Source of the DNA: a virus
IMG/VR virus record: IMGVR_UViG_3300020048_000017
Location: 1 to 64,000 of that record
DNA: 64,000 bases
Reading direction: 5' to 3' (one strand)
The translations under genes and the position numbers were made by a program. The notes under the pieces are model-generated. The model worked only from the letters and a program-made list of their open reading frames with translations. It made no database searches and was not told the DNA's origin. This document shows, in pieces, positions 9,800-41,631 of the stretch; positions within the stretch are counted from its first letter, which is position 1, and every line of letters begins with the position of its first letter.

Positions 9800-9828
9800 A
9801 CAGTAGCACAGGTCTTTTTATTTGTCAA
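9800..9828 (-). promoter_or_regulatory. array promoter (representative)
   Basis: TTGACA-17 nt-TACTGT-5 nt-ATG. Confidence 0.8.
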
Positions 9829-9864
9829 ACGCTTTTTTACAATGTTTAGATTTTATTTCAGGGC

Positions 9865-10115
9865 TGTTCTTATGAACAATGTTTTTGATTTTAGTTTGAT
9901 TTGAAATGTTCAAACGAACAATGTTTTGATTTCATTCTATAAACTGTTTTGAGTCCATGTTCAAATGAACACCAATGATTTGATTTGGGTAATAATTTGA
10001 TTTCATGTTTAAACGAACAATTGTTTTGAATACGCAAACTGTTTTGAGCTGGCTGTTCAAATGAACATGTGTTTTGATTTGAATAAGTGATTTGAATGGT
10101 GTGTTCAAATGAACA
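9865..10115. promoter_or_regulatory. six SOS-type boxes with ~48-nt period
   Basis: 9865, 9907, 9958, 10006 (1 mismatch), 10054, 10102. Confidence 0.9.
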
Positions 10116-10157
10116 ACTACGTAGGCCGAAAAAACCCCGCTTTCGCGGGGCTTTCTG

Positions 10158-10331
10158 TTACGATGGAAAATAATAATTGATCTTACCAAAAAAACCGTTA
10201 GGGATCACACAAAGCCCGCTCCGAGTTCCGCCCTTTCCATTTACCCATTTACAGGGCTTGTATCGACTCCCGTCGAGAATGATTTCCGCCAAGGTCCAAC
10301 TGACTCCGTCAACAATTAAGGTTTCGTTCAT
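10158..10331 (-). CDS. hypothetical protein
   Basis: leaderless ATG 10331 behind TTGACA-17-TATCGT. Confidence 0.6.
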   Translation of the reverse strand: MNETLIVDGVSWTLAEIILDGSRYKPCKWVNGKGGTRSGLCVIPNGFFGKINYYFPS

Positions 10332-10401
10332 TCCCAACGATATCACATAGGTTTCCAATTGTCAACAAGTATTTTACTACTTCAAAATTATTTAGCCCTG
10401 C

Positions 10402-10492
10402 TTTTCATTTGAACACCCTTCCTTAAACTCCCGTGCCATTGTTCATTTGAACATGGTTGTTTCTGTATGTGGATAGGATGTTCATTTGAACA
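10402..10492. promoter_or_regulatory. three SOS-type boxes, 38-39-nt period
   Basis: 10402 (1 mismatch), 10440, 10479. Confidence 0.9.
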
Positions 10493-10543
10493 AATCGTAG
10501 GCAAAGAAAAACCCCGCATAAGGCGGGGTTCTCTCGTTTGTGA

Positions 10544-10717
10544 TTAGCTGAGGTCCCAGCTAGTGAGTCTTTTCAGGTGAGGCGTGAAATCTTCCCCCAT
10601 AGAACGAAGTCGCGAGTTATTGGCGTGACGGTTTCGGCGGCGAGCGCTCTTTTTGATCGGTGAGAAATTACCGCCCACCCAACGGCGAGCCAGTTTGATG
10701 TCAAGAGTTGAGTCCAT
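10544..10717 (-). CDS. 57-aa basic peptide
   Basis: MDSTLDIKLARRWVGG...KKSARRRNRH...TSWDLS*, followed by terminator. Confidence 0.6.
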   Translation of the reverse strand: MDSTLDIKLARRWVGGNFSPIKKSARRRNRHANNSRLRSMGEDFTPHLKRLTSWDLS

Positions 10718-10755
10718 TTTTTAAGATAGTCGCGGCTTTCTAATTTGTCAAACGA

Positions 10756-10947
10756 TTATTTCCAGCTCTTTCTGATGAGGTATTTTTCACCGATCAGAGC
10801 GGAACCCGTAAGGAACCCGCCCGACATGATCAGGGCGGTGAAAAGGTTAGGCTCTTTCGTCATCACAAATACCGGCATTGCGATTGCGATTAGAACGAGT
10901 CCAAAAAGGAGGATTATACAGAGAAGGATATCAAAAACGATTTTCAT
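10756..10947 (-). CDS. small two-TM membrane protein
   Basis: leaderless start behind TTGACA-17-TATAGT. Confidence 0.6.
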   Translation of the reverse strand: MKIVFDILLCIILLFGLVLIAIAMPVFVMTKEPNLFTALIMSGGFLTGSALIGEKYLIRKSWK

Positions 10948-11007
10948 TACTGGACTATAATACACTTTTTTCTAATTGTCAAATGCTTTTTAATAATCTT
11001 TTTCGAT

Positions 11008-11123
11008 TGTTCAAATGAACAATTGCTGCTTATGATTTCAGGCGAATGTTCAAACGAACAAATACCTTGTTGTTCATTTAAACAATGGTATTGGCTATGT
11101 GGTTTACGTTGTTCATTTGAACA
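11008..11123. promoter_or_regulatory. four SOS-type boxes
   Basis: 11008, 11047, 11110 perfect; 11072 one mismatch. Confidence 0.9.
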
Positions 11124-11166
11124 TTCCGATAATCGAGAAAAGCTCGCGCTAGGCGAGCCGTTCAGT

Positions 11167-11484
11167 TTAAGCAACAAATCCGTTGCAACCAATAACATTG
11201 CCCTTGTCATCGCGGATTAGTTCCGCAGGTGAAAGAAGGTCTTTCCGATCAGGCATGGCACTTTTCACCATTGCGGAAACGATGAGAAGTTTGCCCGCCT
11301 CCCGCTCTGGAAGGTTTTCAACCTCGCCGAAATAGCGGGAGAAAACTGGGATACCTCCCGCAGCCGTTCCGGTTCGAGAGAGGATTTGAGAAACCCTTGC
11401 GACAATGCCGCAAGGTGGAAACACGACGTGGTGAGTTTCATCAAGGATGACAACGATTTCATGGGGGGTGAGGTTTTCGACCAT
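11167..11484 (-). CDS. conserved hypothetical protein (NLTPH family)
   Basis: NLTPHEIV...PPCGIVARV...LIVSAMV...RKDLLSP...RDDKGNVIGC. Confidence 0.7.
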   Translation of the reverse strand: MVENLTPHEIVVILDETHHVVFPPCGIVARVSQILSRTGTAAGGIPVFSRYFGEVENLPEREAGKLLIVSAMVKSAMPDRKDLLSPAELIRDDKGNVIGCNGFVA

Positions 11485-11543
11485 GAGAGACTTTAAACTA
11501 GAAAGTCTAATTTGTCAAACTCTTTTTTCAATTAGATTTCATT

Positions 11544-11673
11544 TGTTCATTTGAACGTGGTTCTACTCTATGTGTGTAATGTGTTCGTTTGAACACCCCC
11601 CCCATATCCTTATCGTTGTATTGTTCATTTGAACCTATGTGTTTCTATGGTGGTATTTTCGTTCATTTGAACA
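11544..11673. promoter_or_regulatory. four SOS-type boxes, 38-40-nt period
   Basis: 11544, 11582, 11622, 11660. Confidence 0.88.
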
Positions 11674-11714
11674 TTTTCTTAAACGAGAAAACCCCGCTTT
11701 CGCAGGGCTCTCTT

Positions 11715-12032
11715 TTACATGACGAAAACGAGATTGTGCATAGAGAGTTTTTGATATGTCGCTTTCACGATCTCACAAAATTCCTGAGTGTAGATTGAGG
11801 GCCTTTCGCTTTCGCCTGTCACGTAGCTTTCCAGATTATCAAACCAACGAGAGGCGAGAAACGAACCGATTTCATTGTGGCGGTTGAGAAGTTGACGGGC
11901 ACGACACCCCATTCGATATTCACGGGACCATTGCCCCGTATGGTAATGAGCGCTCCACAGCATGATTCCGATGAGTGATGCGATACGATTGTAATCTTTA
12001 ATTTTGAGTGGGTGCGTATAATAGGTTTTCAT
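11715..12032 (-). CDS. hypothetical protein
   Basis: array unit. Confidence 0.65.
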   Translation of the reverse strand: MKTYYTHPLKIKDYNRIASLIGIMLWSAHYHTGQWSREYRMGCRARQLLNRHNEIGSFLASRWFDNLESYVTGESERPSIYTQEFCEIVKATYQKLSMHNLVFVM

Positions 12033-12093
12033 GGTATTTTAATCTATGCGCGTTTTGAAATAAGTCAACAATTATTTTACCCTATCTTTCGAT

Positions 12094-12146
12094 TGTTCAT
12101 TTGAACATGTTTCTAATTCTCTTTTTATGCTTTGTTCATTTGAACA
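12094..12146. promoter_or_regulatory. two SOS-type boxes
   Basis: 12094 and 12133, both TGTTCATTTGAACA. Confidence 0.9.
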
Positions 12147-12188
12147 TTTCAACCACCGAAAAAACCCCGCTTTCGCGGGGCGTTCGGA

Positions 12189-12443
12189 TTAGAGGATGTA
12201 ACAGGTCAGCTCATAGGTGCCGCTGCTCATGCGGTAGATCGTGATATGGAAATACTTTTTAGTAGCTTTTCCTTTCAGCTCGACGATGGAAAGATGAGCT
12301 TGCTTCGTTTCCTCATATTTCAGGCCTTCGCTGAATTGTTCGTGGACTTCGCTCTGCGCAATAGAGGCGCGGGAATTGGCCGCGTGATTGATCGCGGCAT
12401 CAAGAGCTTGTGAGAGGGTGGCGTGGTAGATGGGGTATTCCAT
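12189..12443 (-). CDS. conserved phage hypothetical protein
   Basis: YHATLSQAL...HITIYRMSSGTYEL pattern. Confidence 0.65.
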   Translation of the reverse strand: MEYPIYHATLSQALDAAINHAANSRASIAQSEVHEQFSEGLKYEETKQAHLSIVELKGKATKKYFHITIYRMSSGTYELTCYIL

Positions 12444-12526
12444 TCCAGACAGTAAACCAGTTATTTCTAATTGTCAAACGGTTATTTCATCATTTTGAAT
12501 TATAATTTCCATAACGAACGAGGGGT

Positions 12527-12616
12527 TGTTCAAATGAACATGGCGGCTCTATTATTTAGGAGTATGTTCAAATGAACATTTTGAATAAGTCGTTCTAGCG
12601 TTTGTTCTAACGAACA
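12527..12616. promoter_or_regulatory. three SOS-type boxes, 38-nt period
   Basis: 12527, 12565, 12603. Confidence 0.9.
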
Positions 12617-12658
12617 TATTTATGGCAAAAAGAAAACCGCCCCGAAGGGCGGCTTCGA

Positions 12659-12898
12659 TCACTCGACAATTGTCACCGTAGCGTCCCCCCGAAGGATATC
12701 CAAATTTTCGAGAGTGTAGGGAACCCCGAGGAGATCCTTTTTACAGTTATCCTCCTCATCCCAGTATTCGCCATAGACTTCGAACATGCCCTCTCCGCAG
12801 TTGAGGATAAATCCCTCATGGCTTTTGAAGTCCACGAAAATGATGAAGCGCCCTTTTTCGGCGGTGACGATTGAGATGAAGTAATGGGTGTTTTCCAT
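12659..12898 (-). CDS. hypothetical protein
   Basis: array unit. Confidence 0.65.
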   Translation of the reverse strand: MENTHYFISIVTAEKGRFIIFVDFKSHEGFILNCGEGMFEVYGEYWDEEDNCKKDLLGVPYTLENLDILRGDATVTIVE

Positions 12899-13070
12899 AG
12901 AACACAGTAATCTAGTCTTTTCTAATTGTCAACAACTATTTTACTACTGTTTTCATTTTGTTCGTTTGAACATTTTCGTAGGGTGATTTGATTTTGTTCT
13001 AATGGACAACCCGCGAACAAAAGAGAGGGCGCAACGTATTGAGCCCCCTCCCACCATGTTTACCCAAAAA

Positions 13071-13214
13071 TTAGATTGCCCGCCCAAGGGCGAGACGGCT
13101 CTCGTTTCGAGCGAGACGCTTCGCGAAATCAGCCACGGCGGGGTCTTCGATTTTGGCAGCAGCCGCAAGACGATTCGAGAGAGAGTTTAAAATGATGTGC
13201 AAGGTTTCTTTCAT
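13071..13214 (-). CDS. 47-aa peptide, paralog of 9200-9343
   Basis: MKETLHIILNSLSNRLAAAAKIEDPAVADFAKRLARNESRLALGRAI. Confidence 0.75.
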   Translation of the reverse strand: MKETLHIILNSLSNRLAAAAKIEDPAVADFAKRLARNESRLALGRAI

Positions 13215-13370
13215 GTAATCAATATAGCAGGGTTTTAAAATAAGTCAACAATTGAATTGTATTATTTTCACCCCCAATCGCGCCATGTTAATTTGAACAC
13301 TATTAATTACACTGGATGTTCATTTGAACATTTTACGGATAAAGAGAAACCCGCGCAAGGCGGGCGGCTC

Positions 13371-13538
13371 TTATTCTGAAAGTGGGTTAGCTTGCAACCT
13401 ACGGTTTAGCCTTATATAACCAGCATACATAGCGAGCAACTCGCGGGACCAGCGGCGATGAGCCACGTTTTCGTGGTGGCGATCCCTGAAAGCTTTCCTG
13501 ACGATCACCATACACCGCTCTTGATAATTGAAGTTCAT
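13371..13538 (-). CDS. hypothetical protein
   Basis: leaderless ATG 13538. Confidence 0.55.
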   Translation of the reverse strand: MNFNYQERCMVIVRKAFRDRHHENVAHRRWSRELLAMYAGYIRLNRRLQANPLSE

Positions 13539-13652
13539 AAGTGACAATAGACGGCTTTTTAAATATGTCAACATTTGTTTTATCAAGGATTTATTTTGTT
13601 CAAATGGACATTTTATTGATAAGGGAAAACCCGCTCAAAGCGGGCTGTCCTT

Positions 13653-13874
13653 TTAGAGAGGAGTTCTCATCATTTTGGCGATCTGAGCCGTATTCATTGC
13701 GATACATCCGAAAGGTCTAGAGGTCGAAGGGTCATGCACGTATTGCCCCGCTCGGCGCTTAGCTTTGTTCCCATTGCCGCGAGCGCTTGCGGATTCCAAG
13801 TTCATTTTAATAATGCACCGAATCATTTTTGGATAGCGTGACGTAGGGTGAAGAGAGTTAAGTAATATCATCAT
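13653..13874 (-). CDS. hypothetical protein
   Basis: array unit. Confidence 0.5.
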   Translation of the reverse strand: MMILLNSLHPTSRYPKMIRCIIKMNLESASARGNGNKAKRRAGQYVHDPSTSRPFGCIAMNTAQIAKMMRTPL

Positions 13875-14030
13875 TTACATTGTATATTAGATTTTAGAAT
13901 TGTCAAGCGTTATTTTACTAATTAGGAGCGATGTTCAAACGAACATCTCGTTTCTTCGTAGTGTATGGGGTTATGTTCAAATGAACTTTTAGTAGACACA
14001 AAGAGACCCGCGCAAGGCGGGCCTAGTTGG

Positions 14031-14312
14031 TTAAAGTTTCGCAATCCTTCCGACGATTTCCATCACTTCGTTGGCGGGGATGTATCCCAGAACGTCTGGA
14101 GTGATCGGGGTTGAGTAGTCCAGAGAACCATCTTTCATAACCGCGATTTCCCAGAGTCCTTCCTCGCCACCGTAGGAATAAGGATTCTGGACGATTGAAG
14201 CAGAGTAGCCGTTAGGCAGATCCACAACGAAGCGGTGACCCCCAGCGTGAGCTTGATAATGCACGTTCGCAAAATTTAGATCGGCAGGTTTGGTAAAAAA
14301 GGTGATTTCCAT
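14031..14312 (-). CDS. conserved phage hypothetical protein
   Basis: LPNGYSASIV...SYGGEEGLWEIAV...YSTPITPDVLGY widespread phage pattern. Confidence 0.7.
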   Translation of the reverse strand: MEITFFTKPADLNFANVHYQAHAGGHRFVVDLPNGYSASIVQNPYSYGGEEGLWEIAVMKDGSLDYSTPITPDVLGYIPANEVMEIVGRIAKL

Positions 14313-14462
14313 TTTTAAATCTATCACACAATAAATTAAATGCAAGTTCTTTTTATCAATTATTTTCAACGTGTTCAAATGAACAACTTAAGCGATTTGT
14401 TCTAATGAACATTTTATTGATAAGAGAAAACCCTCCCCGAGGGGAGGGCTCTCGCCCTTATC

Positions 14463-14714
14463 TCAATCGTAAGCCATCAGGGTTCCGTTGTCGTAGGGTT
14501 CGCAAAAGAAACCGAACTTGGCCAAGGTGTCAACTAGCTCAGGATGAAATTGCTCCGCAGAGTATGGACTGAAGTAACGTCGCCCGTCAGGGTGACATTC
14601 TCCCTCCATGCGAAACCAAACCCCTCCTTCTTGACCGTCCCACTCGACAGTGGAAACGGCATTGATATTCGGAAATTTCTTGTTCAGCGTGTCAATCAGT
14701 TTTTGGATTTTCAT
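14463..14714 (-). CDS. conserved phage hypothetical protein
   Basis: GGVWFRMEGE...HPELVDTLAKFGFFCEPYDNGTLMAY. Confidence 0.65.
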   Translation of the reverse strand: MKIQKLIDTLNKKFPNINAVSTVEWDGQEGGVWFRMEGECHPDGRRYFSPYSAEQFHPELVDTLAKFGFFCEPYDNGTLMAYD

Positions 14715-14917
14715 AGGTGGTGCGGCTTTGCCGTGAGGTAAGGTATCACAGTTCTTTTTAAAAGTCAAACGGTTTTTAATTCATTTTTAATTATAATTTC
14801 CATAATGTTCAATCGAACAACGTTTTGAATTGTTCAAATTTTTAATATGTTCGTTTGAACCAATGTTCTTATGAACAAGTTCTAGGCAAAAGAAAACCCG
14901 CTTGCGCGGGCTTAGCT

Positions 14918-15190
14918 TTAAAGAAGCCTGTCGGGGGATATGTAGTTAACCCCTAAGTGACTGTCAAAGTAGTGATTCTTTTCCCCGATAGTGATTCGTA
15001 GAGTCTGGTAAGCCCCGCAACATTCGCAGTCACCCATGCCGCCCTCAGCCGTTGCCTTGCGAAGTTTTTTACCTCGCCCTTTTCTGATGCTCAAAACAAA
15101 CTTTTCATCGAAGGAAATATCCTTTTCGTTAAGTAGATTGTTAAATTCCCAAACGCCTAGCCCGTCTTTTGGTATGGTGATAAATTTCAT
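14918..15190 (-). CDS. hypothetical protein
   Basis: array unit, CECC motif. Confidence 0.6.
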   Translation of the reverse strand: MKFITIPKDGLGVWEFNNLLNEKDISFDEKFVLSIRKGRGKKLRKATAEGGMGDCECCGAYQTLRITIGEKNHYFDSHLGVNYISPDRLL

Positions 15191-15318
15191 GGTAAAGCAA
15201 TATAGCGCAGCTTTCTAATTTGTCAACACTTATTTTATCAGGTATTTGATTTTGTTCAAATGAACTTACGCAGATAGGGAAAAGGGGCTGGCACTCGCCA
15301 GCCCCTACCATGACCACC

Positions 15319-15555
15319 TTAAATTTTCACGAAGACAGGAAAGCCGAAGTGTTTCATTGCTTCGAATGGGTTAGTGAAAGCGTTGGATTTGTAACCAACG
15401 TAATAAGAGCTTTTCTTACCCATTTCAACCACAGTTCCGGTCATGAGACCTTTCCCGTTTTTGATCCTCTCATATTCTCCATCTGGGAGTTCGAGGATAA
15501 ATTGTTCATTTTTCGGACAAGGTCCGACGTTTCCGATGTAAAGCATTCTGGTCAT
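15319..15555 (-). CDS. hypothetical protein
   Basis: array unit. Confidence 0.6.
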   Translation of the reverse strand: MTRMLYIGNVGPCPKNEQFILELPDGEYERIKNGKGLMTGTVVEMGKKSSYYVGYKSNAFTNPFEAMKHFGFPVFVKI

Positions 15556-15694
15556 AAATTAATATAACACACTATTTTAAATTGTCAAACGCTTTTTGTA
15601 TATATTTTTCGATTGTTCAAATGAACGCAAGTATAGACAATGTTCAAATGAACAAACTCTAGGCAAAAGAAAAGCCCCTTGCGGGGCATGACCC

Positions 15695-16027
15695 TTAGAG
15701 GTCTTTCGCGATATCCTCGACGATAGCTTTCGAGAAAGCCAGCCCGAGGGTGTTTCTGCCGTCGTAATAGTTCGTGAGAATCGCCATGTCGGGCATCAGG
15801 AGGAGACCGAACGCCTTGGTGAAATACGCAGAAACGTCAGATTGATAAGCCAACTGGCGGAGGAGTTTAATGGCGGCGATTTTGCCCTCGCTCACAAAAC
15901 GATCACCGATCATTTAGATTTCTGGGCGAACGAAGACGGGGGACATTTTTTCCGCAAGGAAATCTGCTGCGTAATTGCGGAAAGAAGGAGATTCGGCGAG
16001 GATGGCTATGATAAGGTTTTTGTCCAT
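15695..16027 (-). pseudogene. split paralog of 9474-9794 (37 aa, in-frame TAA, then ATG and 72 aa)
   Basis: MDKNLIIAILAESP...RPEI*MIGDRFVSEGKIAAIKLLR...LGLAFSKAIVED; TAA at 15914-15916. Confidence 0.6.
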
Positions 16028-16409: not shown

Positions 16410-16540
16410 GAATCAATATAGCATAGGTTTTAAATAAGTCAAGCGTTTTTTTATTACTTCTTCAAAATATATTAGCTCTGTTCATTTGAACGGCCGCTAT
16501 CTGATTATGTTCATTTGAACCGTGTATAAGGGTTTCCCCT

Positions 16541-16978: not shown

Positions 16979-17066
16979 AAATAACAATAGCGCGGATTTA
17001 TTATTTGTCAAGAGCTTTTTATTTAAATGTCAAAAATGTTCATTTGAACCCTATGGGGGTTTCCCC

Positions 17067-19113: not shown

Positions 19114-19399
19114 ATTTAGGTGACGCTCTTTTGGCGTGAATTAACTTAACACACTATTTCTAATTGTCAAATGCTTTTTATCCTTTTTCGAAATATAATT
19201 TCTAGAATGTTCAAATGAACAAACCCCCAAACGAAAAATCGCCTGCCTTTCGGCAAGCGTTTTTCGAATTCTTTTTCTTGCGGTCGGGGACCACTTTGGT
19301 TCCCATACCTAACACGAACGCGGCCCCACGTTTCGGGGCGTATGGTTTGATCGGTTTCTTCATGAGATATTATTACACCAATTTGAAGGTTGTCAACTA

Positions 19400-20556: not shown

Positions 20557-20737
20557 GTAGCAATATATCACAGGTTTTAAAGAATGCAAGCGCTTTTTTC
20601 ATTTAATTTCATTATAATTTTCATAAGGTTACAATTCAGGAATTGTTCCTTTGAACATCGTGAGGTTCTATGCGTTCGTTTGAACAATTTCCGCAATCTT
20701 GATTTTGTTCATTTGAACCATTAGGAAGGCTTTCGCC

Positions 20738-22175: not shown

Positions 22176-22382
22176 GTAGTAACATATCACAGGTTTTTAA
22201 TAAGTCAAGTAATTAATAGGCCAAATTTAGATTGTTCGTTTGAACATTGTTACGAGCGTTATAATCCTATGGTATTAATATGTTCGTATGAACAAGGTGA
22301 TTACAAAAAAAACGGAGGGTGCGTGAAGACCCCTCCGTTTTTTGTATGTCAGACCGCATCACTGGTCAAATTTAAATTAGGT

Positions 22383-22454
22383 GTTTACAGATGGGATTCG
22401 AACCCATATTCAGCGGCTTCCCGCCCCTTGTCCTACCGTTAGACGACTGTAAAC
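22383..22454 (-). tRNA. tRNA-like element with degenerate anticodon arm
   Basis: GTTTACAG/CTGTAAAC acceptor, TCGTCTAACGGTAGGAC D arm, ATGGG-TTCGAAT-CCCAT T arm; loop CGGGAAG lacks U33, stem has a mismatch. Confidence 0.6.
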
Positions 22455-22611: not shown

Positions 22612-22726
22612 TAGGAACTATACCACAGATTTTTCGATTGTCAAGTGATTTTATTATCAATACCGTTTTGTTCAAATGAACCTTTGTTCAAATGAACCTA
22701 GTGGGTAAAGGCCGAAGCCCCCACCC

Positions 22727-24068: not shown

Positions 24069-24165
24069 TTCTAATACTACTTCAAATATTCTAAATGTCA
24101 AGCGGAAAATTTGGGGCCATCTGATTTGTTCATTTGAACCTCTTTTTCCCTTTCGGGATTTTGCA

Positions 24166-24372: not shown

Positions 24373-24459
24373 AAATTAATATAGCATAAGGATTTTAATT
24401 GTCAAGCGGAAATTTCGGGGCTATCTAATTTGTTCAAATGAACATTTCTACTTAATAAA

Positions 24460-28968: not shown

Positions 28969-29069
28969 TCCGCACTATACAAGATGTTTTGAATTTGTCA
29001 AGGACTTTTGTTTTGAATTGTTCATAAGAACATTGGCCGCCACGAAAAAAGCCCCGAAGGGCTTTAGTC

Positions 29070-29615
29070 TTAAACGAATGGATAGTTATCCTTTCTAGGG
29101 ACTGCCGGTTTCTCACCGAACTTGATTGTAGTCTTACACCGGAGGTACCTTCTGCTCGACCCTTTCTGAATCTTGTTGTGCATCGCCATCGTGATATCGT
29201 GAGAGCGGCAGGAGCAATGATAGGTAACCCTTGAGGTAGTTCGTGCTTTGGGTAGCGCAACCGAATGGCACCTTTGAGCCTTCACTTCGAAGTCCCGCAT
29301 GATACGCTTCCAGTATTGACCGTGGGGAGGGTTTCTCTTGCGATCCCTTGGATACGTAGGGTGATTGTATTGCACAAGGTGGGCAACTTCGTGAGGGACG
29401 GTGTGGTCGAATAAGTGGTCCCATCCACCCTCGACTTGAAGAGCCGTCAGGTTGAAACGCAATTCATTTGTGTGTGAGTTCGCGGTCCCCATCGTGGTTC
29501 CTTTAAGATCGAAACGAATCGTGGGGTTAAGTCTAACCCCGTGGATTTCCTCCGCTTTCTGGAGGTAGATTTTAACACGGGTGAGGATTTGGTTTTTGGC
29601 GTCAGTTATTGTCAT
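29070..29615 (-). CDS. sprT: SprT-like zinc metalloprotease
   Basis: HTVPHEVAHL, PHGQYWKRIM, YHCSC. Confidence 0.88.
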   Translation of the reverse strand: MTITDAKNQILTRVKIYLQKAEEIHGVRLNPTIRFDLKGTTMGTANSHTNELRFNLTALQVEGGWDHLFDHTVPHEVAHLVQYNHPTYPRDRKRNPPHGQYWKRIMRDFEVKAQRCHSVALPKARTTSRVTYHCSCRSHDITMAMHNKIQKGSSRRYLRCKTTIKFGEKPAVPRKDNYPFV

Positions 29616-29620
29616 GCCGA

Positions 29621-29648
29621 ACTATAACACAGTGTTTTTAATTGTCAA
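29621..29648 (-). promoter_or_regulatory. array promoter (sprT)
   Basis: TTGACA-16 nt-TATAGT-5 nt-ATG; box 25 nt upstream at 29674. Confidence 0.8.
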
Positions 29649-31081: not shown

Positions 31082-31198
31082 TTTGACAGAATCAAGGGCG
31101 ACTCTTACTTAAAAGAATTAGATAAATGTGACTTACTTTGTATGAATTGTCACATGGAAGAACACTATCTCCACTTAGATAAGCCCGACAGGAATTGA
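31082..31198 (+). pseudogene. HNH endonuclease C-terminal remnant
   Basis: startless frame reading ...KELDKCDLLCMNCHMEEH, directly after a TGA, next to the tRNA cluster. Confidence 0.5.
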
Positions 31199-31252
31199 AC
31201 CTGCAACCCTTCGATTATGAGTCGAGCGCACTAACCCTTGTGCTACAGGCTC
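31180..31252 (-). tRNA. tRNA-Ile2/Met (CAT)
   Basis: full cloverleaf; CGACTCATAATCG anticodon arm typical of lysidine tRNA-Ile2. Confidence 0.85.
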
Positions 31253-31262
31253 TTATAAAAAA

Positions 31263-31350
31263 TGGTCCCTTGAGCGGGACTCGAACCCGCACGGTCGCAA
31301 TGACCAGCGGATTTTAAGTCCGCAGCGTCTACCAATTCCGCCACCAAGGG
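31263..31350 (-). tRNA. tRNA-Leu (TAA)
   Basis: cloverleaf with long variable arm, CTTAAAA loop, encoded CCA. Confidence 0.92.
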
Positions 31351-31354
31351 AAAA

Positions 31355-31428
31355 CGAGACGCGAGGGATTCGAACCCGTCAACCTACGGATTAGAAATCC
31401 GTTGCTCATCCATTTGAGCTTCCGCCTC
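31355..31428 (-). tRNA. tRNA-Arg (TCT)
   Basis: ACGGA-TTTCTAA-TCCGT arm; slightly imperfect acceptor and T stems. Confidence 0.82.
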
Positions 31429-34511: not shown

Positions 34512-34513
34512 TA

Positions 34514-36000: not shown

Positions 36001-36021
36001 AAACCACAGTTTTTTGATTTG

Positions 36022-36363
36022 TCAAACGTTTTCTGGAATGAATTTTTGTGCCCATTCTTGTTTTTTAAGATGTTCTTGAACCTCTGTGTAAGTAATTTCA
36101 GACGCTTTATTTGGGGCAAAATTTAGGAAAGACCTTCCCCATTCGTTTTCGTCTTTGATTTTCCAAAGGGTTCTTTCATTCACGCACTCTATAACGGTTA
36201 CCATACGACAGGTGAATAACTGGTCGGCAAAATTTGCTCTAGTGTATTGAGCCGCTAAACAACCGCATTCGTAAGACGAATGAAATTCGCCCATGTTAAC
36301 CTTTTTGTCTAAAGGTTGGGCAAAAATAAATTCAATAAACTCTTGAGTAGTTACAATTCTCAT
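36022..36363 (-). CDS. hypothetical protein, paralog of 36630-36977
   Basis: FIFAQP...MGE...CGCL...TYTEVQEHLKKQEWA. Confidence 0.7.
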   Translation of the reverse strand: MRIVTTQEFIEFIFAQPLDKKVNMGEFHSSYECGCLAAQYTRANFADQLFTCRMVTVIECVNERTLWKIKDENEWGRSFLNFAPNKASEITYTEVQEHLKKQEWAQKFIPENV

Positions 36364-36608
36364 TCGTCGAGATTTTTAGACTCCCAGTATTCTCGAAAAC
36401 TCCTAAGTTCCGCGAGTTCGTCGATCAGTTTGATAAGACCTCCGATAGCATTGCTAAGTCTCGCTTTATCAGAAACCTCAGGACCGATGAGTGAAAGGTA
36501 ATTAAAAACCGCCGTGACGCCCATGCAGCAAAAGCATTCGATATGACAACCTACGGCGCTTTCCTCGCAAGATTTTCCGTCTTTGTGATCAGGATGTTCG
36601 CACTTCAT
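36360..36608 (-). CDS. hypothetical Cys-rich protein
   Basis: CEHPDH...GCHIECFCC. Confidence 0.55.
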   Translation of the reverse strand: MKCEHPDHKDGKSCEESAVGCHIECFCCMGVTAVFNYLSLIGPEVSDKARLSNAIGGLIKLIDELAELRSFREYWESKNLDE

Positions 36609-36629
36609 AATTAACTATAGCACCTCTTT

Positions 36630-36977
36630 TTAATTTGTCAAGTTTTTTTTTGGAATAAAAGATTTTGCCCACCCTTGAGTTTTAAGAAACTCCTGAATCT
36701 CCCCGTAAGTCCTGACGCTAGAAAGATTTCCGGAAGGGACGAAGTCGAAAAAACTCTCTCCTTCCAGAGTCATCAAAGTTTCACCTTTTGAGTTTTCCAC
36801 TACATTCATTCCGCACCCTAAGGCTATTTTAGCTACTTGGAAAAGTTTCTCGCGGACATATTGAACCCCGATACACCCGCACTTATCGGAAAAGTAATTC
36901 TCTCCCATTTTCACTTCTTTTTCGGCGGGTTGGTTGAAGATGAATGAAATAAGATCTTGTTTTGTAATTTTTCTCAT
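36630..36977 (-). CDS. hypothetical protein, paralog of 36022-36363
   Basis: FIFNQP...MGE...CGCI...TYGEIQEFLKTQGWA. Confidence 0.7.
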   Translation of the reverse strand: MRKITKQDLISFIFNQPAEKEVKMGENYFSDKCGCIGVQYVREKLFQVAKIALGCGMNVVENSKGETLMTLEGESFFDFVPSGNLSSVRTYGEIQEFLKTQGWAKSFIPKKNLTN

Positions 36978-37014
36978 GACTGATTATACTTCGGTTTCTG
37001 GATTTGACAAGGGT

Positions 37015-37368
37015 TTAATCTACCCATTTTCCAATGGTTCTCAAGAATGCCTCTGCCCGTTGTTTGGCGGTTGCGCGGATGTAGCTATCTTTTCCCATGT
37101 CGCCGGAAACTAGGCGGTTCAGAAGGTCGGCGTAGTCCCAAAAACGCCACGTGCAGAAAACCTCTTCGGCCACGTGCATCGCGTTCAGGTCGTTGCAATA
37201 GTTGGGGATCGCTTCGAATATTTGCCGCTCAATACATTCAGGATTATTTGGAATGCCTACAAAATAACGAGTATTAGGCCCGTCCCAATTTAGCCACTCC
37301 TCTTTAATTTGTGTCCATCCCAGAATTTCCGCAATGGCAATATCAATATCAATATCTTGGTTTTCCAT
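37015..37368 (-). CDS. phage ABA-sandwich-like domain protein
   Basis: IAIAEILGW...PNYCNDLNAMH.AEE...ATAKQRAEAFL. Confidence 0.55.
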   Translation of the reverse strand: MENQDIDIDIAIAEILGWTQIKEEWLNWDGPNTRYFVGIPNNPECIERQIFEAIPNYCNDLNAMHVAEEVFCTWRFWDYADLLNRLVSGDMGKDSYIRATAKQRAEAFLRTIGKWVD

Positions 37369-37804
37369 GCAGCACTATAACCCTCTTTTTTAATTTGTCA
37401 AATTGTTTTTATCCAAGAGCTTTTGATATCTTTCGCGCCGTTTTACCACAACAAGAGTCTGGTCAAGCAATGCTATAGAACACTTTATACCTCCTATAAT
37501 ATCGCTCCAAGGAAGATCTGGATGAGCTTCGCGTTTACTGGGCCTATTAAGTTCCCCAGCAGTTGTATGAAGTTCGTGCAAAGACCTTTGAAGCTGTTCG
37601 GAGATTTTCATTTCGTTTCTCCAGACCCTTGAAAAATGTTGCGAAACGCCGCGTTTACGTTGCTCTCAGGAAGTCCCGAAAGTTTGGCCATATCTTCGAT
37701 AGAAATGTTGCTAAGAAGAGCTCTAGCGGCATATACGGCGGTTTTTAATTCAATTGCCGTAAGGTGACTAACAGGGGTTTCGTTTTCGTTTTTAAATGTC
37801 ATAA

Positions 37805-38056
37805 CTAATTTGATCTTTTGTTCCAAAGTTTTATTGCCGCTCTTTTGGCGCGATTGATATATTTCTCCCCGTATCGGAAATTTCTAAACCCGTCAACAAC
37901 CCTTTCCTCTATCGTCATTAGATCGCATATCTGGACGCTAGATATCGCCATGCCACAGCCACATTCTATTTCGTATTGAGACCCTGTTCCTTCGGGGAAC
38001 TCTGGGACTTCTCCACAAAAGGGGCACGGTTTTAGAGTGTCAAAGTTTTTACTCAT
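37805..38056 (-). CDS. Lar-like restriction alleviation family protein
   Basis: LKPCPFCGE...IECGCG...AAIKLWNKR. Confidence 0.65.
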   Translation of the reverse strand: MSKNFDTLKPCPFCGEVPEFPEGTGSQYEIECGCGMAISSVQICDLMTIEERVVDGFRNFRYGEKYINRAKRAAIKLWNKRSN

Positions 38057-38262
38057 GTTTTACTATACCCCTTGTTCTCTATCTGTCAAATTGTAAATAA
38101 TATTCCAGACCTTAGTTTGGTCTACTTCGTAAAAAAGTTCTGGGAAAGGGTGAGGTAATTGTTTGTGGAAATGGATATAAAAAGCTTGCCCCAATCTCAT
38201 ATCAGGGAATTCACACTTATTCCACTTTTTTATAAACTCTTCTACTTCACTTCTTTTCATAA

Positions 38263-38649
38263 TTAAACAGTCTCCCTTTTAATGTTGCGAAGGTCTGAGT
38301 AATCGTGAGCGGTCCCCGTTACTCTTCCTGCGTCCGACTTAGAGTCGCTTCTATCGTAACGATGGACTCCATTTTGGTCAATCACGGTTTCGTAACCTTT
38401 AGTTTCCATGCTTCGCGCTACGATTTGGATGATTTCGCCACCCTGAGTTACGTAAGTCTTACCTACTAGGAAGCTAAAAGAGTGCCCTTCCAAATGTTCA
38501 AAGCACAAAAACTTTCCAGTCTCGCGACGAGCCCTAACGTTTTTCTTCCCGCATACCTCGCAGTTGCCGTTAGAATAACCCGAGCCTCCAAAAAAAGACC
38601 CTCCACCCATCATCATTGACATTGCTAAAAGTTGGTTTAATTTGTTCAT
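38263..38649 (-). CDS. hypothetical protein with Zn-ribbon
   Basis: CEVCG...LCFEH. Confidence 0.55.
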   Translation of the reverse strand: MNKLNQLLAMSMMMGGGSFFGGSGYSNGNCEVCGKKNVRARRETGKFLCFEHLEGHSFSFLVGKTYVTQGGEIIQIVARSMETKGYETVIDQNGVHRYDRSDSKSDAGRVTGTAHDYSDLRNIKRETV

Positions 38650-39016
38650 GTCTTACTATAACACAACTTTTGAATTTGTCAATACTTAAATAGGAAATAA
38701 AAGAATCCTAAAAAACAAGCTCCACAAATGAGCGCGCAACTCACGTTTTGAAAAGCTTCCGGCCAAGATATTTCTGCTAGTATCATCGTTTTTTCTTGAG
38801 AGTTAACATTGATTCAATTCCCGCATAAGGGAAAGGCCCATTTTTCTTTTCTCCAAACTCAGCGTTAGGAAGGATTTCGCGATACTCCCCTGAGATAGAA
38901 TCGGACCCTTTAGGACCTCTTGTGTAATTCGACACAATGTAAGTGTGTCCCGACTTCATGACTACAATAACAGCTTTCATGAAAGAATATGGCCCCTTTC
39001 GTGGCATTGTCAAGTG

Positions 39017-39976
39017 TTAAAGGCTTTCGAGGTAATCTTTTCCTTCGTGAGAGATAAACCTCTTGCCGTCTACTTTCATAAGACCCCTGCGGAGAAGGTA
39101 TTGCTCCATGTCCCGCACTACAAGCGCAGCTTGTGCTACGTGGTTCGCAACGTCGAGAAGTCGAGAACCTGACGGATTTGCACGAAGGAATTCAAGCACC
39201 CTCACTTCTTCCGAAGTAAGACCTAGAGGCAGAATATTCATTACTTCGAACAATTCTTTAGCGTCATCTACTGTAAACTCATCGGAGTCGTAAGCAGAGA
39301 GAAAGGTGTTGACGTTCTCGCCCATCTTGATAGCCGAGCGACCGTTCATGCGAAGGCGAGACACTAGCTCTACCACTGCTTCTGTGGTAACGTTAGCCTC
39401 AGAATTGCACTGGGAGAGGATGATCATTCCCAGCTCAACGTTGTCCAGAGGTTGAAGAGCTACCTCCGTAAGACGGTCCATAAGAGGTTTGAACATCTTG
39501 TCTTTTTCGGTGGTCGCAAAGATGAACGTAGCCATCGTAAAGTCAACGTCCATTCGCTCTTCGGAGTCGCCCGAACCGATTGCAAAGAAACCCTTATTAG
39601 TGTTGGAGGGTTCCAGCATAGAGAGTAGTCGATTGGTCACCTTGTCGCTGAGACCGTGAGCCTCATCAATAAGAACCGTGATCGGAGTGTCCAAAACAGT
39701 TTCAAACATGAAAGCACCGAAATCTTTGATGCTAGTGAATTGGCCCGCATTAATGTGAGCGAACTTACGACGCTCTCCAGTTCTAACTTCCTGAATATTG
39801 CTGGTTGCGATTGCGATCTGCTTAGAGATGAAGCTTTTGCCCCCGCCCGCTTCAGCGGACAGGAACATGTGAGGCATCAGACCGGTGTTCTCCATACCTG
39901 CGAGGAGGAAGTTGAGCTTACGCTTAACTTGAGCTTGACCGATAACGTTAGGGAGTCTGTCTTGGAATTTCTTCAT
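39017..39976 (-). CDS. ruvB: RuvB-like Holliday junction branch-migration AAA+ ATPase
   Basis: VIGQAQVK; PHMFLS-AEAGGGKS; VLIDEAH; IFATTE; PLMDR; C-terminal wHTH LGL...MEQYLLRRGL. Confidence 0.82.
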   Translation of the reverse strand: MKKFQDRLPNVIGQAQVKRKLNFLLAGMENTGLMPHMFLSAEAGGGKSFISKQIAIATSNIQEVRTGERRKFAHINAGQFTSIKDFGAFMFETVLDTPITVLIDEAHGLSDKVTNRLLSMLEPSNTNKGFFAIGSGDSEERMDVDFTMATFIFATTEKDKMFKPLMDRLTEVALQPLDNVELGMIILSQCNSEANVTTEAVVELVSRLRMNGRSAIKMGENVNTFLSAYDSDEFTVDDAKELFEVMNILPLGLTSEEVRVLEFLRANPSGSRLLDVANHVAQAALVVRDMEQYLLRRGLMKVDGKRFISHEGKDYLESL

Positions 39977-39981
39977 TCTGC

Positions 39982-40009
39982 ACTATAACACGCTTTCTAG
40001 ATATGTCAA
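39982..40009 (-). promoter_or_regulatory. box-less leaderless promoter (ruvB)
   Basis: TTGACA-16 nt-TATAGT-5 nt-ATG, no TGTTC-N4-GAACA upstream. Confidence 0.8.
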
Positions 40010-40111
40010 CTTCTTTTTTACTAAAATCTGCTTATTAATAACTTTTATCCTTGGACACGAAAAAGGGATCGGTTTCCCGATCCCTTTTTATCACACGCAG
40101 GTTGTCTTAAA

Positions 40112-40477
40112 TTAAACGATCTCGGCAGCGACCTTGCTGGCTTTGACTGGCGCTTCGACTTCGTCAAACGTAACGGCGTCAGCAGCCCAGCTTGAGGAGA
40201 CCTTAACCTTCGCAGAGAAGGCAGTTTCTGCTTTCGCTTCTTTCGCAGCCGCCTTCATTGCTGTGGCGAACTTCCTACCACCGACATGCTGGAGGAGTGC
40301 GAAGAGAGACATTTCGGAGAGAACCGGAGAACCCTCTTTACGACCACGCTTGATCACTTCGCCATCTTCACCAACTACGCGCCACTGCTCTTTGTCGCCA
40401 GTTGCGGTTGCACAAAGGCGAACGGTTTCACCTTTAGCATTTTGACGCTCATCACCGATTTTGAATGTAGTTTTCAT
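40112..40477 (-). CDS. hypothetical Ala/Lys-rich protein
   Basis: biased codon usage, terminator downstream. Confidence 0.65.
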   Translation of the reverse strand: MKTTFKIGDERQNAKGETVRLCATATGDKEQWRVVGEDGEVIKRGRKEGSPVLSEMSLFALLQHVGGRKFATAMKAAAKEAKAETAFSAKVKVSSSWAADAVTFDEVEAPVKASKVAAEIV

Positions 40478-40556
40478 ATTCTTGTTTTCTTTTTTTTGTT
40501 TTGTTGTTATTGTTAAAGCACTATAACATGCTTTTATATTTTGTCAAGAGGTTTCT

Positions 40557-40919
40557 TTAATTAATTTTCAGAGCCTCTTCGCTTTCTAATTCTTTTACGC
40601 AGTTCTCTAAGTATTCCAAAGCGTCTTCTACTTCCGAATACTCGCAAGGGAAAAATATTGCGTCTGATGCAAACTCTGCGTCTGAGCCTTCCACGATGGT
40701 ATAAAACCTAATTCCTACCACGAAATGTCCTGCCCAAATATTAGGGAGGTCTCTAGTGATGCCGTGATGGTCATCATGTGCAAAAACTGAATCTTTTGTC
40801 GTGAGATATTCGGTGCTTACTCCACACTCCGTTTTGTCGTAAAAATGACGACCCAACGCTCTTAGGGATTCGCAATCCAAATGTTCCGCTAGTCGAGAAA
40901 TGCTGCTTATTTGTTTCAT
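40557..40919 (-). CDS. hypothetical protein
   Basis: leaderless promoter unit. Confidence 0.6.
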   Translation of the reverse strand: MKQISSISRLAEHLDCESLRALGRHFYDKTECGVSTEYLTTKDSVFAHDDHHGITRDLPNIWAGHFVVGIRFYTIVEGSDAEFASDAIFFPCEYSEVEDALEYLENCVKELESEEALKIN

Positions 40920-40960
40920 GTCTTTACTCTAACACACTTTGAGCTATTGTCAAGAGATTT

Positions 40961-41254
40961 TTATTCAGCAAGCCAACTCATTAATTCTTGAGCGGTTTCG
41001 AATTCAAAGACTTTAGTGTTAGGACTTTCGACAAGTTTTTTGACAAACTTCCCCAAATTAGCTTCGCCGTGAATCGAAAAACAGTTCCCTATTGTTAATT
41101 TGTGCAGACTCCGAGCTTGGTAGTCCCCATGGTTGTAATAAGGTCGGGTAATAAAACCTTTGGTATCCCAGCGTTCGACCCCATAGAATTTATCGGGATC
41201 GACTTCCTGAAATGAAATCGTTGGTTGTTGACTAACTGTTACTACTTCTTTCAT
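40961..41254 (-). CDS. hypothetical protein, KFYG paralog family
   Basis: KFYG...KGF...LTIGNCF...FEFETAQELMSWLAE. Confidence 0.7.
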   Translation of the reverse strand: MKEVVTVSQQPTISFQEVDPDKFYGVERWDTKGFITRPYYNHGDYQARSLHKLTIGNCFSIHGEANLGKFVKKLVESPNTKVFEFETAQELMSWLAE

Positions 41255-41603
41255 CTTATCAGATCTCTAAATTCTTTTTTAATACTTTCGCGTCAAGTTG
41301 TTTTTATGTATGATTATTAAATAAATCTCACGAAGTCAAACTGCCTTTGAACTTTCATTGGTAAGCAAATAAAAGCCATTTCTCGCCAATCATCGCCAGT
41401 CTCGGTATAGCAAGAGTTTTCCCAGTTATCGCCTAGACAGTATGAGACATAATCTCCGCGACAGTCAATTCTCCAAGAAAGTAGAAATTTCTGCCCTTCA
41501 AAATTGATGTAAATCGTGTTCTTGTCAATTAATTTAATTTCTTTCATGAGCCAATATATCATGCTGTAAAAATAAGTCAAGTTCTTTTTTTATAGCACCC
41601 GAT

Positions 41604-41631
41604 TGTTCATAAGAACATGTTCATTAGAACT
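41604..41631. promoter_or_regulatory. outlying tandem SOS-type boxes
   Basis: TGTTCATAAGAACA + TGTTCATTAGAACT, 23 nt upstream of -35 at 41575-41580. Confidence 0.85.

Follow-up and report, generated by a model that had tools for sequence, protein, structure and literature searches.

The LexA-type boxes of this phage genome are located upstream of promoters at a fixed distance from the −35 hexamer that changes in steps of about one helical turn, and this spacing lock points to a bound protein that would work directly with RNA polymerase. The window is the whole stretch of DNA that was analysed, 64,000 nucleotides (positions 1 to 64,000 of IMG/VR record IMGVR_UViG_3300020048_000017). The box, wTGTTCAwwTGAACAw, is present in 85 exact copies in the 179-kb phage genome, where all 85 exact GTTC-N4-GAAC copies are confined to positions 8270–41619 of 179,178 bp, and a weight matrix gives 92–94 matches compared with 0–3 in shuffled sequence. 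The boxes cluster into 45 arrays, 44 of which lie upstream of a minus-strand promoter, and about 45 small self-contained gene units carry one to nine boxes apiece ahead of a strong promoter. The arrays are as follows.

8269–8653, no strand assigned: largest array, 9 scored boxes and degenerate copies, between the upstream terminator and the regulator gene.
9043–33259, no strand assigned: 43 box arrays of 1–6 boxes each, for which array coordinates, gaps and spacings were recorded.
41604–41631, no strand assigned: outlying box pair, 23 nt upstream of a promoter with its −35 at 41575–41580.

Each of the 43 arrays has the upstream unit's terminator on one side and, on the other, the UP-like tract and −35 with which the next minus-strand promoter begins. 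The promoters are of the type TTGACA-16-(TGn)TATAGT-5-ATG upstream of minus-strand genes and look leaderless, and the 16-nt spacer is itself conserved. As the original prediction had described, an AT-rich UP-like tract is present between box and promoter, namely AAAAA at 5–9 nt upstream of the −35 with 0.7–1.3 bits per position, which is the only conserved part of the linker from box to −35. A perfect TTGACA is found in 70% of the boxed promoters, usually with an extended −10 and the UP-like tract, a combination that is unlike typical class I targets. The layout is illustrated by the following two units.

15553–15687, minus strand: representative unit, with terminator stem 15687–15674 and T-run, then boxes 15641–15654 and 15614–15627, a 25-nt linker with AAAAA, −35 TTGACA 15583–15588, a 16-nt spacer with TGTGT, −10 TATATT 15561–15566, 5 nt and ATG 15553–15555.
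16415–16521, minus strand: example of the second gap class, with boxes 16479–16492 and 16508–16521 and a gap of 36 nt to −35 TTGACT 16437–16442.

The distance from the −35 hexamer to the 14-mer box was recomputed for every array, and the histogram over 44 arrays contains the two classes that had been proposed. The gap is 23–26 nt in 28 of the 44 arrays (exactly 25 in 15) and 35–37 nt in a further 8, while no gap of 29–34 or 38–48 nt was found among the 44. The probability of at least 28 of 44 arrays falling by chance in any 4-nt window of a 41-nt range is ~1.6e-16; for the second cluster (16 arrays remain once the main class is set aside, and 8 of them fall within 3 nt) it is ~8e-4. The recomputation reproduced 28 of the 30 gaps listed originally, the arrays at 11008 and 11544 giving 25 in place of 26, and the exception at 29019 (17 nt) is real. 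Additional gaps beyond that list are 25 (13597), 26 (14372), 23 (32463) and 28 (21266), together with 36–37 at 10402, 13286 and 14806; array 9413 has a gap of ~35 by eye from a weak TTGCTT −35, where the script picked another −35. Long gaps of 49/50 (12527, 26950), 54 (20644) and 57 nt (23156) also occur, and the arrays with gaps of 50 and 57 nt have a degenerate box at ~35 and ~26 nt, respectively. The box centres fall at about −65.5 and −76.5, counted from the A of ATG as the start, in agreement with the predicted −66 and −77. Promoters with a spacer of 17 in place of 16 still have a gap of 25 or 36, which indicates that the position of the box is fixed relative to the −35/UP side rather than the −10.

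Part of the 36–54 nt gap class is explained by an inserted second motif.

12501–12512, minus strand: second motif ATGGAAATTATA, ending exactly 23 nt from the −35.

Further copies of ATGGAAATTATA are present at 14792–14803, 19194–19205 and 20613–20624, and the copy at 9013–9024 is about one nt further out by eye. Because it ends 23 nt from the −35, the motif occupies the slot that a box would hold, and in promoters with ATGGAAATTATA the box is displaced further upstream.

The distances between neighbouring boxes are ~16, 27, 38 or 48 bp and repeat every ~11 bp (R 0.52, Rayleigh p ~1.5e-6). At this period the phase is ~0.46, that is, half-integral turns, and therefore adjacent boxes alternate between helix faces. 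Other phage fragments share the box and the leaderless promoter type; their gap is mostly 46–49 nt, roughly 25 plus two turns in fragments that are unrelated, and once 35 nt.

A candidate for the binding protein is encoded next to the largest array.

7615–8094, minus strand: gene of a 159-aa LexA DNA-binding-domain-only protein (P0001), PF01726 27–29 bits against a cut-off of 23.7.
8088–8160, minus strand: the regulator gene's own promoter, −35 TTGACA 8155–8160, −10 TATATT and a ~38-nt leader.

In P0001 a beta-rich N-terminal domain is followed by a LexA-type winged helix (about residues 60–125) and a short basic C-terminal tail; an S24 peptidase domain is absent. Its helix-turn-helix is LexA-like and resembles that of Verrucomicrobiales LexA, with which the protein shares 31% identity and 58% similarity across 89 aa (E 1e-13); the best Foldseek matches of its AF2 model are the LexA DNA-binding domains 1lea, 3jso and 1jhf. 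Five full-length relatives are 146–172 aa long, and TGTTC-type boxes lie just upstream of the homologous regulator genes of four relatives, clear in three and degenerate only in one. The prediction that boxes overlap neither −35 nor −10 holds throughout, and the sole near-overlap is a degenerate box at 8088–8101 (weight-matrix match at 8089), which overlaps the ATG of the regulator gene.

The box is the same 14-bp palindrome as in canonical SOS boxes, and 4 of 4 Verrucomicrobiales MAGs have one such box ~8 nt ahead of the ATG of lexA. The host probably belongs to the Verrucomicrobiota. The Verrucomicrobia-type LexA motif reportedly described by Erill et al. in 2016 is TGTTC-N4-GAACA. Canonical SOS boxes overlap the core promoter or the start site and repress, whereas 44 of the 45 arrays here are upstream of the −35 and the UP tract.

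We infer from this arrangement the binder, its contact and the sign of its effect as follows. The boxes would be operators for a LexA-type winged-helix dimer, either the phage protein, host LexA or both. The promoter-proximal box immediately precedes the UP-like A-tract of a leaderless promoter of sigma-70 type, at distances from the −35 that follow the series 25, 36, 47–50 nt; a dimer bound there would adjoin and touch the alpha C-terminal domain docked on the A-tract. The primary effect would be that polymerase is stabilised at the promoter, like the effect of Fis upstream of the UP element at rrn P1. The contact may raise the output of units with weaker cores; where the core is near consensus, it may have little effect or hold the polymerase back. 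A polymerase-coupled operator of either sign appears somewhat probable, while the full explanation, with a LexA-type operator stabilising polymerase through the alpha C-terminal domain, is tentative and falls a little short of an even chance. We know of no surface of the LexA DNA-binding domain for the alpha C-terminal domain, which counts against the contact. The original prediction had held that the protein contacts RNA polymerase, which would not be needed in a pure decoy; the fixed stepped spacing agrees with this, and the alpha C-terminal domain is the proposed point of contact.

The prediction of an activator geometry stands as regards the fixed upstream position and the steps of ~11 bp, and is weakened by the near-consensus cores, the non-CRP register and the nearly exclusive placement at terminator-promoter junctions. 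As in CRP class I promoters, the site is upstream of the −35 and its positions are stepped by about one helical turn. However, the distance from the site centre to the 5′ edge of the −35 is ~26, 37 or 47 bp for CRP class I and 32, 43 or 53–56 bp for the boxes, a register offset by ~6 bp or roughly half a turn, and the targets here have a consensus −35 and multiple sites that alternate faces. The promoters are similar to E. coli rrn P1 in the near-consensus core, the 16-bp spacer, the A/T-rich UP tract and several dimer sites just beyond it, although the putative binder here is from a different family and activation here is a proposal. The three Fis sites of rrnB P1 are on one helix face, whereas the boxes are half-integral turns apart. 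Activation of rrn P1 by Fis, bound at several sites beyond the UP element, goes through the alpha C-terminal domain and increases with the number of those sites (PMC4696680). Phage phi29 p4, which is not LexA-type and regulates a handful of promoters, also binds upstream of a strong early promoter, A2c, where it acts via the alpha C-terminal domain with a sign that depends on promoter strength, according to Monsalve 1996 and 1998 as cited in PMC11806353. By analogy, a contact with the alpha C-terminal domain could be compatible with activation (Fis at rrn P1, GIL01 gp6) or with repression (phi29 p4).

The sign of the effect can be considered against an internal comparison set within the window.

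33499–64000, minus strand: about 20 unboxed promoters of the same leaderless type, without boxes and without an upstream terminator.

They lie inside the 3′ end of the ORF before them. Compared with unboxed promoters, the boxed ones have weaker cores both across the genome (Mann-Whitney p 0.004) and within 8–34 kb (10.5 against 11.5 of 12, p 0.005), and the correlation between box number and core weakness vanishes when genome position is controlled (partial r −0.08).

The most serious alternative, although an unlikely one, is a shut-off operator. The phage LexA-domain protein would build up and, bound in the one slot left free, repress the early units, either because it traps or displaces the alpha C-terminal domain on the UP tract, much as phi29 p4 does at A2c, or because it spreads along the array. 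A factor that stabilises polymerase represses strong consensus cores, in the description that PMC11806353 gives with reference to Monsalve 1996 and 1998, and LexA-family proteins repress by default. The box over the start of the regulator gene is a typical autorepression layout, and multi-box arrays, with as many as 9 copies, would favour high occupancy. Since the leaderless units have no 5′ UTR and a conserved 16-nt spacer, the first free 14-bp operator slot would lie beyond the A-tract, and the fixed 25 nt would follow from this. However, the discrete 36 and 47–50 nt classes indicate that the box is not simply as close as possible, and repression from −65 without overlap is uncommon. Moreover, the boxed cores are the weaker and not the stronger ones, and twelve consensus promoters inside the 8–34 kb stretch have no boxes and would escape regulation.

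The boxes track terminator junctions as closely as promoters, and a strict terminator is found upstream of 19 of 34 boxed but only 1 of 37 unboxed promoters (Fisher p 4e-7). Bound immediately past each intrinsic terminator, the protein could accordingly be pictured as an insulator or roadblock: read-through polymerase would be halted at the U-tract and the next promoter protected from occlusion, and the −35 distance would reflect how tightly terminator, box, UP tract and core are packed. Among the 34 arrays, out of 45, for which a terminator T-run was found, 30 have it ending 8–15 nt short of the distal box; this distance is about the reach of the leading edge of an elongating polymerase. The largest array is anchored to a terminator yet its proximal scored box is 108 nt from the −35 of the regulator gene. 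We consider this reading improbable, as ~10 boxed promoters with no recognisable terminator still show a gap of 23–28 nt, and the proximal gap (23–26) is tighter than the terminator distance (8–15). Packing also predicts a lower bound with a tail and not empty intervals at 29–34 and 38–48 nt, and arrays of at least two boxes, where space is not limiting, keep 23–26 nt in ~16 of 26.

A LexA decoy or sponge, in which host LexA would be titrated, or the phage mimic buffered, by ~94 sites per genome that are intergenic only because nothing else is non-coding, is highly improbable. The high number of sites limited to non-coding junctions, the identity of the box with the motif at Verrucomicrobiales lexA genes and the non-cleavable phage LexA-like protein would suit it. 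However, a decoy needs neither the fixed −35 distance, the 11-bp stepping nor the conserved inter-box spacing, and the same placement series recurs in other phage lineages; a pure decoy is therefore unlikely, and a stereospecific link with promoter or polymerase is the better reading. The least probable reading, recombination cassettes in which terminator-box-promoter repeats are homology patches that shuffle small accessory genes, is compatible with a regulatory role and recalls the PeSLs, T4-type phage promoter and stem-loop cassettes with a proposed role in recombination (PMC2839356, PMC4122927), in that small ORFs have a conserved early promoter on one side and a terminator stem-loop on the other (a 16-nt core, CCCCGCTTTCGCGGGG, is common to six terminators), only 3 of 36 boxed ORFs have a Pfam match, as in hyperplastic regions, and the assemblies of relatives break at arrays, but PeSLs have no upstream operator arrays, homology patches need neither helical phasing nor a palindromic protein-type motif, and the inter-box linkers of the 38–39 and 48–49 classes are no more similar than shuffled sequence, so the modules are not being homogenised.

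For the polymerase-coupled operator, net activation by the boxes is at best as tentative as the full explanation. The near-consensus cores (70% TTGACA, extended −10, UP-like tract) should fire without help, which counts against activation. A close precedent is the truncated LexA homologue gp6 of phage GIL01, an activator that works at the late promoter P3 from one site centred at −43.5 and overlapping the −35 (class II position) at a single promoter, with a motif that differs from the host LexA box (PMC6182141). Both systems have a phage protein with a LexA-type DNA-binding domain only and a palindrome next to a sigma-A/70 promoter, binding being predicted here. In contrast to gp6, the sites here are at about −65.5, −76.5 or −89, beyond the UP-like tract, the box is present at ~44 promoters and matches the presumed host LexA motif, and P0001 has an extra N-terminal domain of ~55 aa. 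The weaker boxed cores and the gp6 precedent lend mild support to a positive role, gp6 showing that a protein with only the DNA-binding domain of LexA can activate.

The motif GTTC-N4-GAAC is present in 85 exact copies, all within 8270-41619, and has no copy in the remaining 145 kb of the genome. A weight matrix detected 92-94 sites in the genome compared with 0-3 in a shuffled genome, and the symmetrised consensus, wTGTTCAwwTGAACAw, fits the 14-bp operator palindrome of Verrucomicrobia-type LexA, TGTTC-N4-GAACA. The 94 boxes were grouped as 45 arrays of 1-9 boxes each. The overlap with the core promoter or start site through which a bound LexA operator blocks the polymerase was not found: as predicted, the boxes stand clear of the core promoter, 44 of the 45 arrays lying 17-57 nt upstream of the -35 hexamer, and a start is overlapped only by a degenerate box at 8088-8101. 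The orientation of the box centres showed no significant bias (28 versus 16). To obtain the gap between the -35 hexamer and the nearest box, each array was assigned the best promoter located downstream of it, and all promoters were aligned on the -35.

Distribution of the gap between the -35 hexamer and the nearest box; one scored array without a clear promoter assignment is left out
17 nt: 1 array
23-26 nt: 28 arrays (15 at exactly 25)
28 nt: 1 array
29-34 nt: 0 arrays
35-37 nt: 8 arrays
38-48 nt: 0 arrays
49, 50, 54 and 57 nt: 1 array each
108 nt: the regulator gene's own array, measured from its own -35

The original prediction had described a main class phase-locked at 23-26 nt, a second class one helical turn further out and an exception at 17 nt. 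All three reappear in the recomputed distribution, where the chance of the main cluster is ~1.6e-16 and that of the second ~8e-4; 28 of the 30 predicted gaps were reproduced, and the other two were off by one. The box centres are at approximately -65.5, -76.5 and -89/-90 (taking the A of ATG as +1), the first two in agreement with the predicted -66 and -77, and the upstream positions are restricted to steps of one helical turn (23-26, 35-37 and 49-50 nt). The arrays with gaps of 50 and 57 nt have a degenerate box at ~35 and ~26 nt, respectively. By a hand tally, about 16 of the 26 arrays with at least two boxes, where room is not limiting, still have a gap of 23-26 nt. Promoters with a 17-nt spacer still have a gap of 25 or 36 nt, which indicates that the position of the box is fixed relative to the -35/UP side. 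The 25-nt linker between box and -35 shows no conservation except for the expected A-rich tract, AAAAA, located 5-9 nt upstream of the -35, which we take to resemble the proximal UP-element subsite; the distal subsite is weak.

One promoter type, AAAAA-n4-TTGACA followed by a 16-nt spacer ending in TGTGn, TATAGT, 5 nt and ATG, occurs ~80 times in the genome compared with once in a shuffle. In 52 of 81 promoters, the ATG is located exactly 5 nt past the -10, which leaves no space for a Shine-Dalgarno sequence, and this layout is found on both strands and also in the tRNA-operon regions beyond the window. Examples are as follows.

15553-15588, leaderless-looking promoter
29615-29648, leaderless-looking promoter
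36608-36641, leaderless-looking promoter

At a distance of 5 nt, the first transcribed nucleotide would be expected to be the A of ATG or one beside it, and we infer from this layout that the promoters are leaderless.

Of 34 boxed promoters, 19 have a strict terminator upstream, against a single one among 37 unboxed promoters (Fisher p 4e-7). A T-run belonging to the terminator of the upstream unit was found for 34 of the 45 arrays, and in 30 of these it stops 8-15 nt ahead of the distal box. The unboxed promoters are placed inside the 3' end of the preceding ORF. These two features indicate a unit in the order of terminator, boxes, A-tract, core promoter and leaderless ORF. For approximately ten boxed promoters no clear terminator was seen, and their gap is still 23-28 nt. 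A function could be recognised for almost none of the 36 boxed ORFs, and the arrangement is similar to PeSL cassettes, in which a conserved early promoter and a stem-loop bracket small accessory ORFs. Six terminators (8673, 9174, 9446, 10135, 12165 and 23205) have a 16-nt stem-loop core, CCCCGCTTTCGCGGGG, in common, which provides repeated homology patches between units. One boxed promoter without an ORF drives a tRNA-like gene, and a tRNA cluster is also present.

22380-22454, minus strand, tRNA-like gene, tRNA-Ser(gga) by ARAGORN (Rfam tRNA, 40.5 bits)
22639-22644, -35 hexamer of its promoter
22669-22698, boxes of its promoter
31180-31428, tRNA cluster of two or three genes

Within the arrays, the centres of neighbouring boxes are 16-17, ~27, 38-39 or ~48 bp apart, with a best period of ~11 bp (R 0.52, Rayleigh p ~1.5e-6). 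The phase at the 11-bp period is ~0.46, and a value near one half indicates that neighbouring boxes lie on opposite faces of the helix. The identity of the linkers equals the shuffled expectation in the 38-39 class (0.300 versus 0.297) and the 48-49 class (0.269 versus 0.273); the conserved feature of these linkers is the length and not the sequence, and for both classes recent duplication is rejected as an explanation of the constant spacing. The neighbouring units at 24127-24140 and 24431-24444 are a paralogous copy, in which the linkers upstream of the promoter are 84% identical, pointing to a recent tandem duplication of the unit.

The slot beside the UP tract can also be occupied by a second motif, ATGGAAATTATA.

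12501-12512, ATGGAAATTATA, ends 23 nt from the -35
14792-14803, ATGGAAATTATA, ends 23 nt from the -35
19194-19205, ATGGAAATTATA, ends 23 nt from the -35
20613-20624, ATGGAAATTATA, ends 23 nt from the -35
9013-9024, ATGGAAATTATA, ~1 nt further from the -35, by eye

At these four or five promoters, the proximal box is displaced upstream to 37-54 nt, which suggests that the slot is a general docking position. A similar motif is also located upstream of the regulator gene in the relative L314.

The array region ends with a gene for a candidate binding protein.

7615-8094, minus strand, regulator gene, encoding the 159-aa protein P0001 with a LexA DNA-binding domain

The match of the domain to PF01726 scored 27-29 bits, above the cut-off of 23.7. 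P0001 shares the winged helix with LexA, but it gave no Peptidase_S24 match and extends only ~35 aa beyond the wing; it lacks the C-terminal S24 peptidase/dimerisation domain of LexA with the cleavage site. The AF2 model has four N-terminal beta strands, a winged helix with a pLDDT of 82-89 and low-confidence C-terminal helices, and its top Foldseek matches are LexA DNA-binding domains. P0001 is 31% identical and 58% similar to a Verrucomicrobiales LexA over 89 aa (E 1e-13), and the two are closest in the helix-turn-helix (PSTRDIQ..GFPSQTSAMNCLKSLEKAG versus PSTREIQ..GFASQTAAVSHLRALEKKG). In all four Verrucomicrobiales MAGs where lexA was located, a single TGTTC-N4-GAACA box lies ~8 nt ahead of its ATG. 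The boxes of the phage and of the lexA loci fit the Verrucomicrobia LexA motif reportedly published by Erill in 2016. A genome scan for tandem boxes gave an apparent enrichment in Verrucomicrobiota, Planctomycetota and Bacteroidales, judged by eye from record titles. Host LexA would probably recognise the same boxes, and P0001 and host LexA are both candidate binders.

A word-index protein search with P0001 returned no homologue besides itself, and five full-length relatives (P0002, P0005, P0011, P0022 and P0044) of 146-172 aa and 30-40% identity came from an exhaustive HMMER search. All six proteins have an N-terminal domain with QSGR...IRxA, followed by the winged helix and a basic tail. Residues 1-58 of P0001, with the four predicted strands, define a small family of LexA-domain-only proteins; this N-terminal domain of ~55 aa has no Pfam match and could be a dimerisation or effector module. 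Contigs of four relatives were inspected upstream of the regulator gene; three have clear TGTTC-type boxes there and the remaining one, L311, has degenerate boxes only, which indicates that regulator and box travel together. For this phage and its relatives (L021, L310-L314), the contigs assembled from short reads all break off at the array, 160-330 nt before the regulator gene on its upstream side, and box arrays are probably under-represented in assemblies.

The window is the opening 64 kb of a 179,178-bp genome whose IMG/VR record is rated complete. The 'terminal repeat' has a length of only 55 bp and resembles an overlap left by the assembly of a circular or permuted genome. Minus-strand genes occupy the stretch from ~64 kb down to 7.6 kb, the terminase is of the T4 type and at most 26% identical to that of any cultured phage, and the host probably belongs to the Verrucomicrobiota. 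A distant relative identified by its terminase (G001, 191 kb, L115-L124) has neither boxes nor leaderless promoters; it carries 22 copies of a 14-mer, AAGTTCTCACGTTG, unrelated to the box. Candidates based on DUF7227 were rejected as not being true relatives and have no arrays.

A tandem-box scan of viral contigs showed that the unrelated fragments G011-G014 and G015 combine boxes with leaderless promoters of the type TTGCGC-16-TATAGT-5/6-ATG, and a scan for a box plus a -35 gave single chance matches only. The proximal box in these fragments is 46-49 nt from the -35, and 35 nt once; 46-49 nt is close to what two 11-bp steps beyond 25 nt would give. As the promoters of this set are in part orthologues of each other, the support is suggestive rather than strong. 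A palindrome, ACGCAATCGCG, abuts the proximal box in this set. More widely, a second palindrome, ACGCAATCGCG or ACGCGATCACGT, adjoins a TGTTCA-N2-TGAACA box in L142, L148, L149 and L168 (G011-G014), L131 (G015), L310 and L315, and box and palindrome together may form a composite two-factor operator. The promoters of L315 (gap 37 by eye) scored too low to be counted. PF01726 had no match in G011-G015, which has no bearing on its absence as the fragments are only 12-42% complete.

Judged from the sequence, the best reading is that the bound protein probably works with RNA polymerase rather than the boxes acting as a free decoy. The original prediction had gone further, to an activator contacting the polymerase; the coupling and the stepped spacing are retained, whereas the register is off that of class I activators and the cores are near consensus. 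Activation of the boxed promoters is conceivable but somewhat doubtful. The stepped geometry speaks for it, and allowed upstream positions one helical turn apart are also a property of CRP class I promoters. However, the box centre is 32, 43 or 53-56 bp from the -35 edge, compared with ~26, 37 and 47 bp for CRP (sites at -61.5, -72.5 and -82.5), which is a difference of half a turn. The boxed cores are weaker than the unboxed ones, as would suit the sub-optimal core of a class I promoter, yet a perfect TTGACA is present in 70% of them and an extended -10 in 58%. The correlation of box number with core strength was dropped as independent evidence because it is confounded by genome position.

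Two precedents favour activation. The truncated phage LexA homologue gp6 of GIL01, which like P0001 is phage-encoded and has only the DNA-binding domain of LexA, is an activator (PMC6182141), although its site, centred at -43.5, overlaps the -35. In rrn P1, strong cores with UP elements are boosted further by multiple Fis sites beyond the UP element (PMC4696680), and here too an A-rich UP tract separates the -35 from the boxes. Other points are against activation or neutral. Neighbouring boxes alternate between helical faces, whereas the factor sites of the rrn P1 type share one face; where a unit is leaderless and its spacer constrained, -60 to -73 is the first slot for any operator; ATGGAAATTATA uses that slot and pushes the box upstream; strong promoters are repressed by a polymerase-stabilising factor (PMC11806353, which cites phi29 p4 at A2c); and the link to terminators favours an insulating role. 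Repression of the boxed promoters by the bound protein is less likely still than activation.

The most specific form of the activation reading is tentative and, taken as a whole, rather unlikely: a large-phage lineage, probably on Verrucomicrobiota, would have recast the host SOS-repressor code as a promoter-upstream activation code, in which either the LexA-domain-only protein of the phage or host LexA that has been captured, at helically phased boxes beyond the UP tract, co-activates ~44 insulated leaderless single-gene units via the alpha C-terminal domain of RNA polymerase.

If the boxes only repress or insulate, this is an ordinary, though unusually regular, operator system of phage early genes. 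If a LexA-type domain acts from ~-65 via polymerase contact at dozens of promoters, the repertoire of the LexA fold would be widened; gp6, acting from -43.5 at one promoter, is so far the only phage example found in the papers searched. Activation would give the LexA fold a Fis-like role on a regulon-wide scale and would couple early phage expression to host DNA-damage signalling, or deliberately uncouple it. With such polymerase contact, the 44 promoters, which cover three spacing classes and cores both strong and weak, would be a natural, highly repeated test bed of the way in which the sign of regulation depends on site position and promoter strength, and the system would provide a first look at transcription control in Verrucomicrobiota phages. 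For synthetic biology, the compact design of the leaderless terminator-operator-promoter unit is also of interest.
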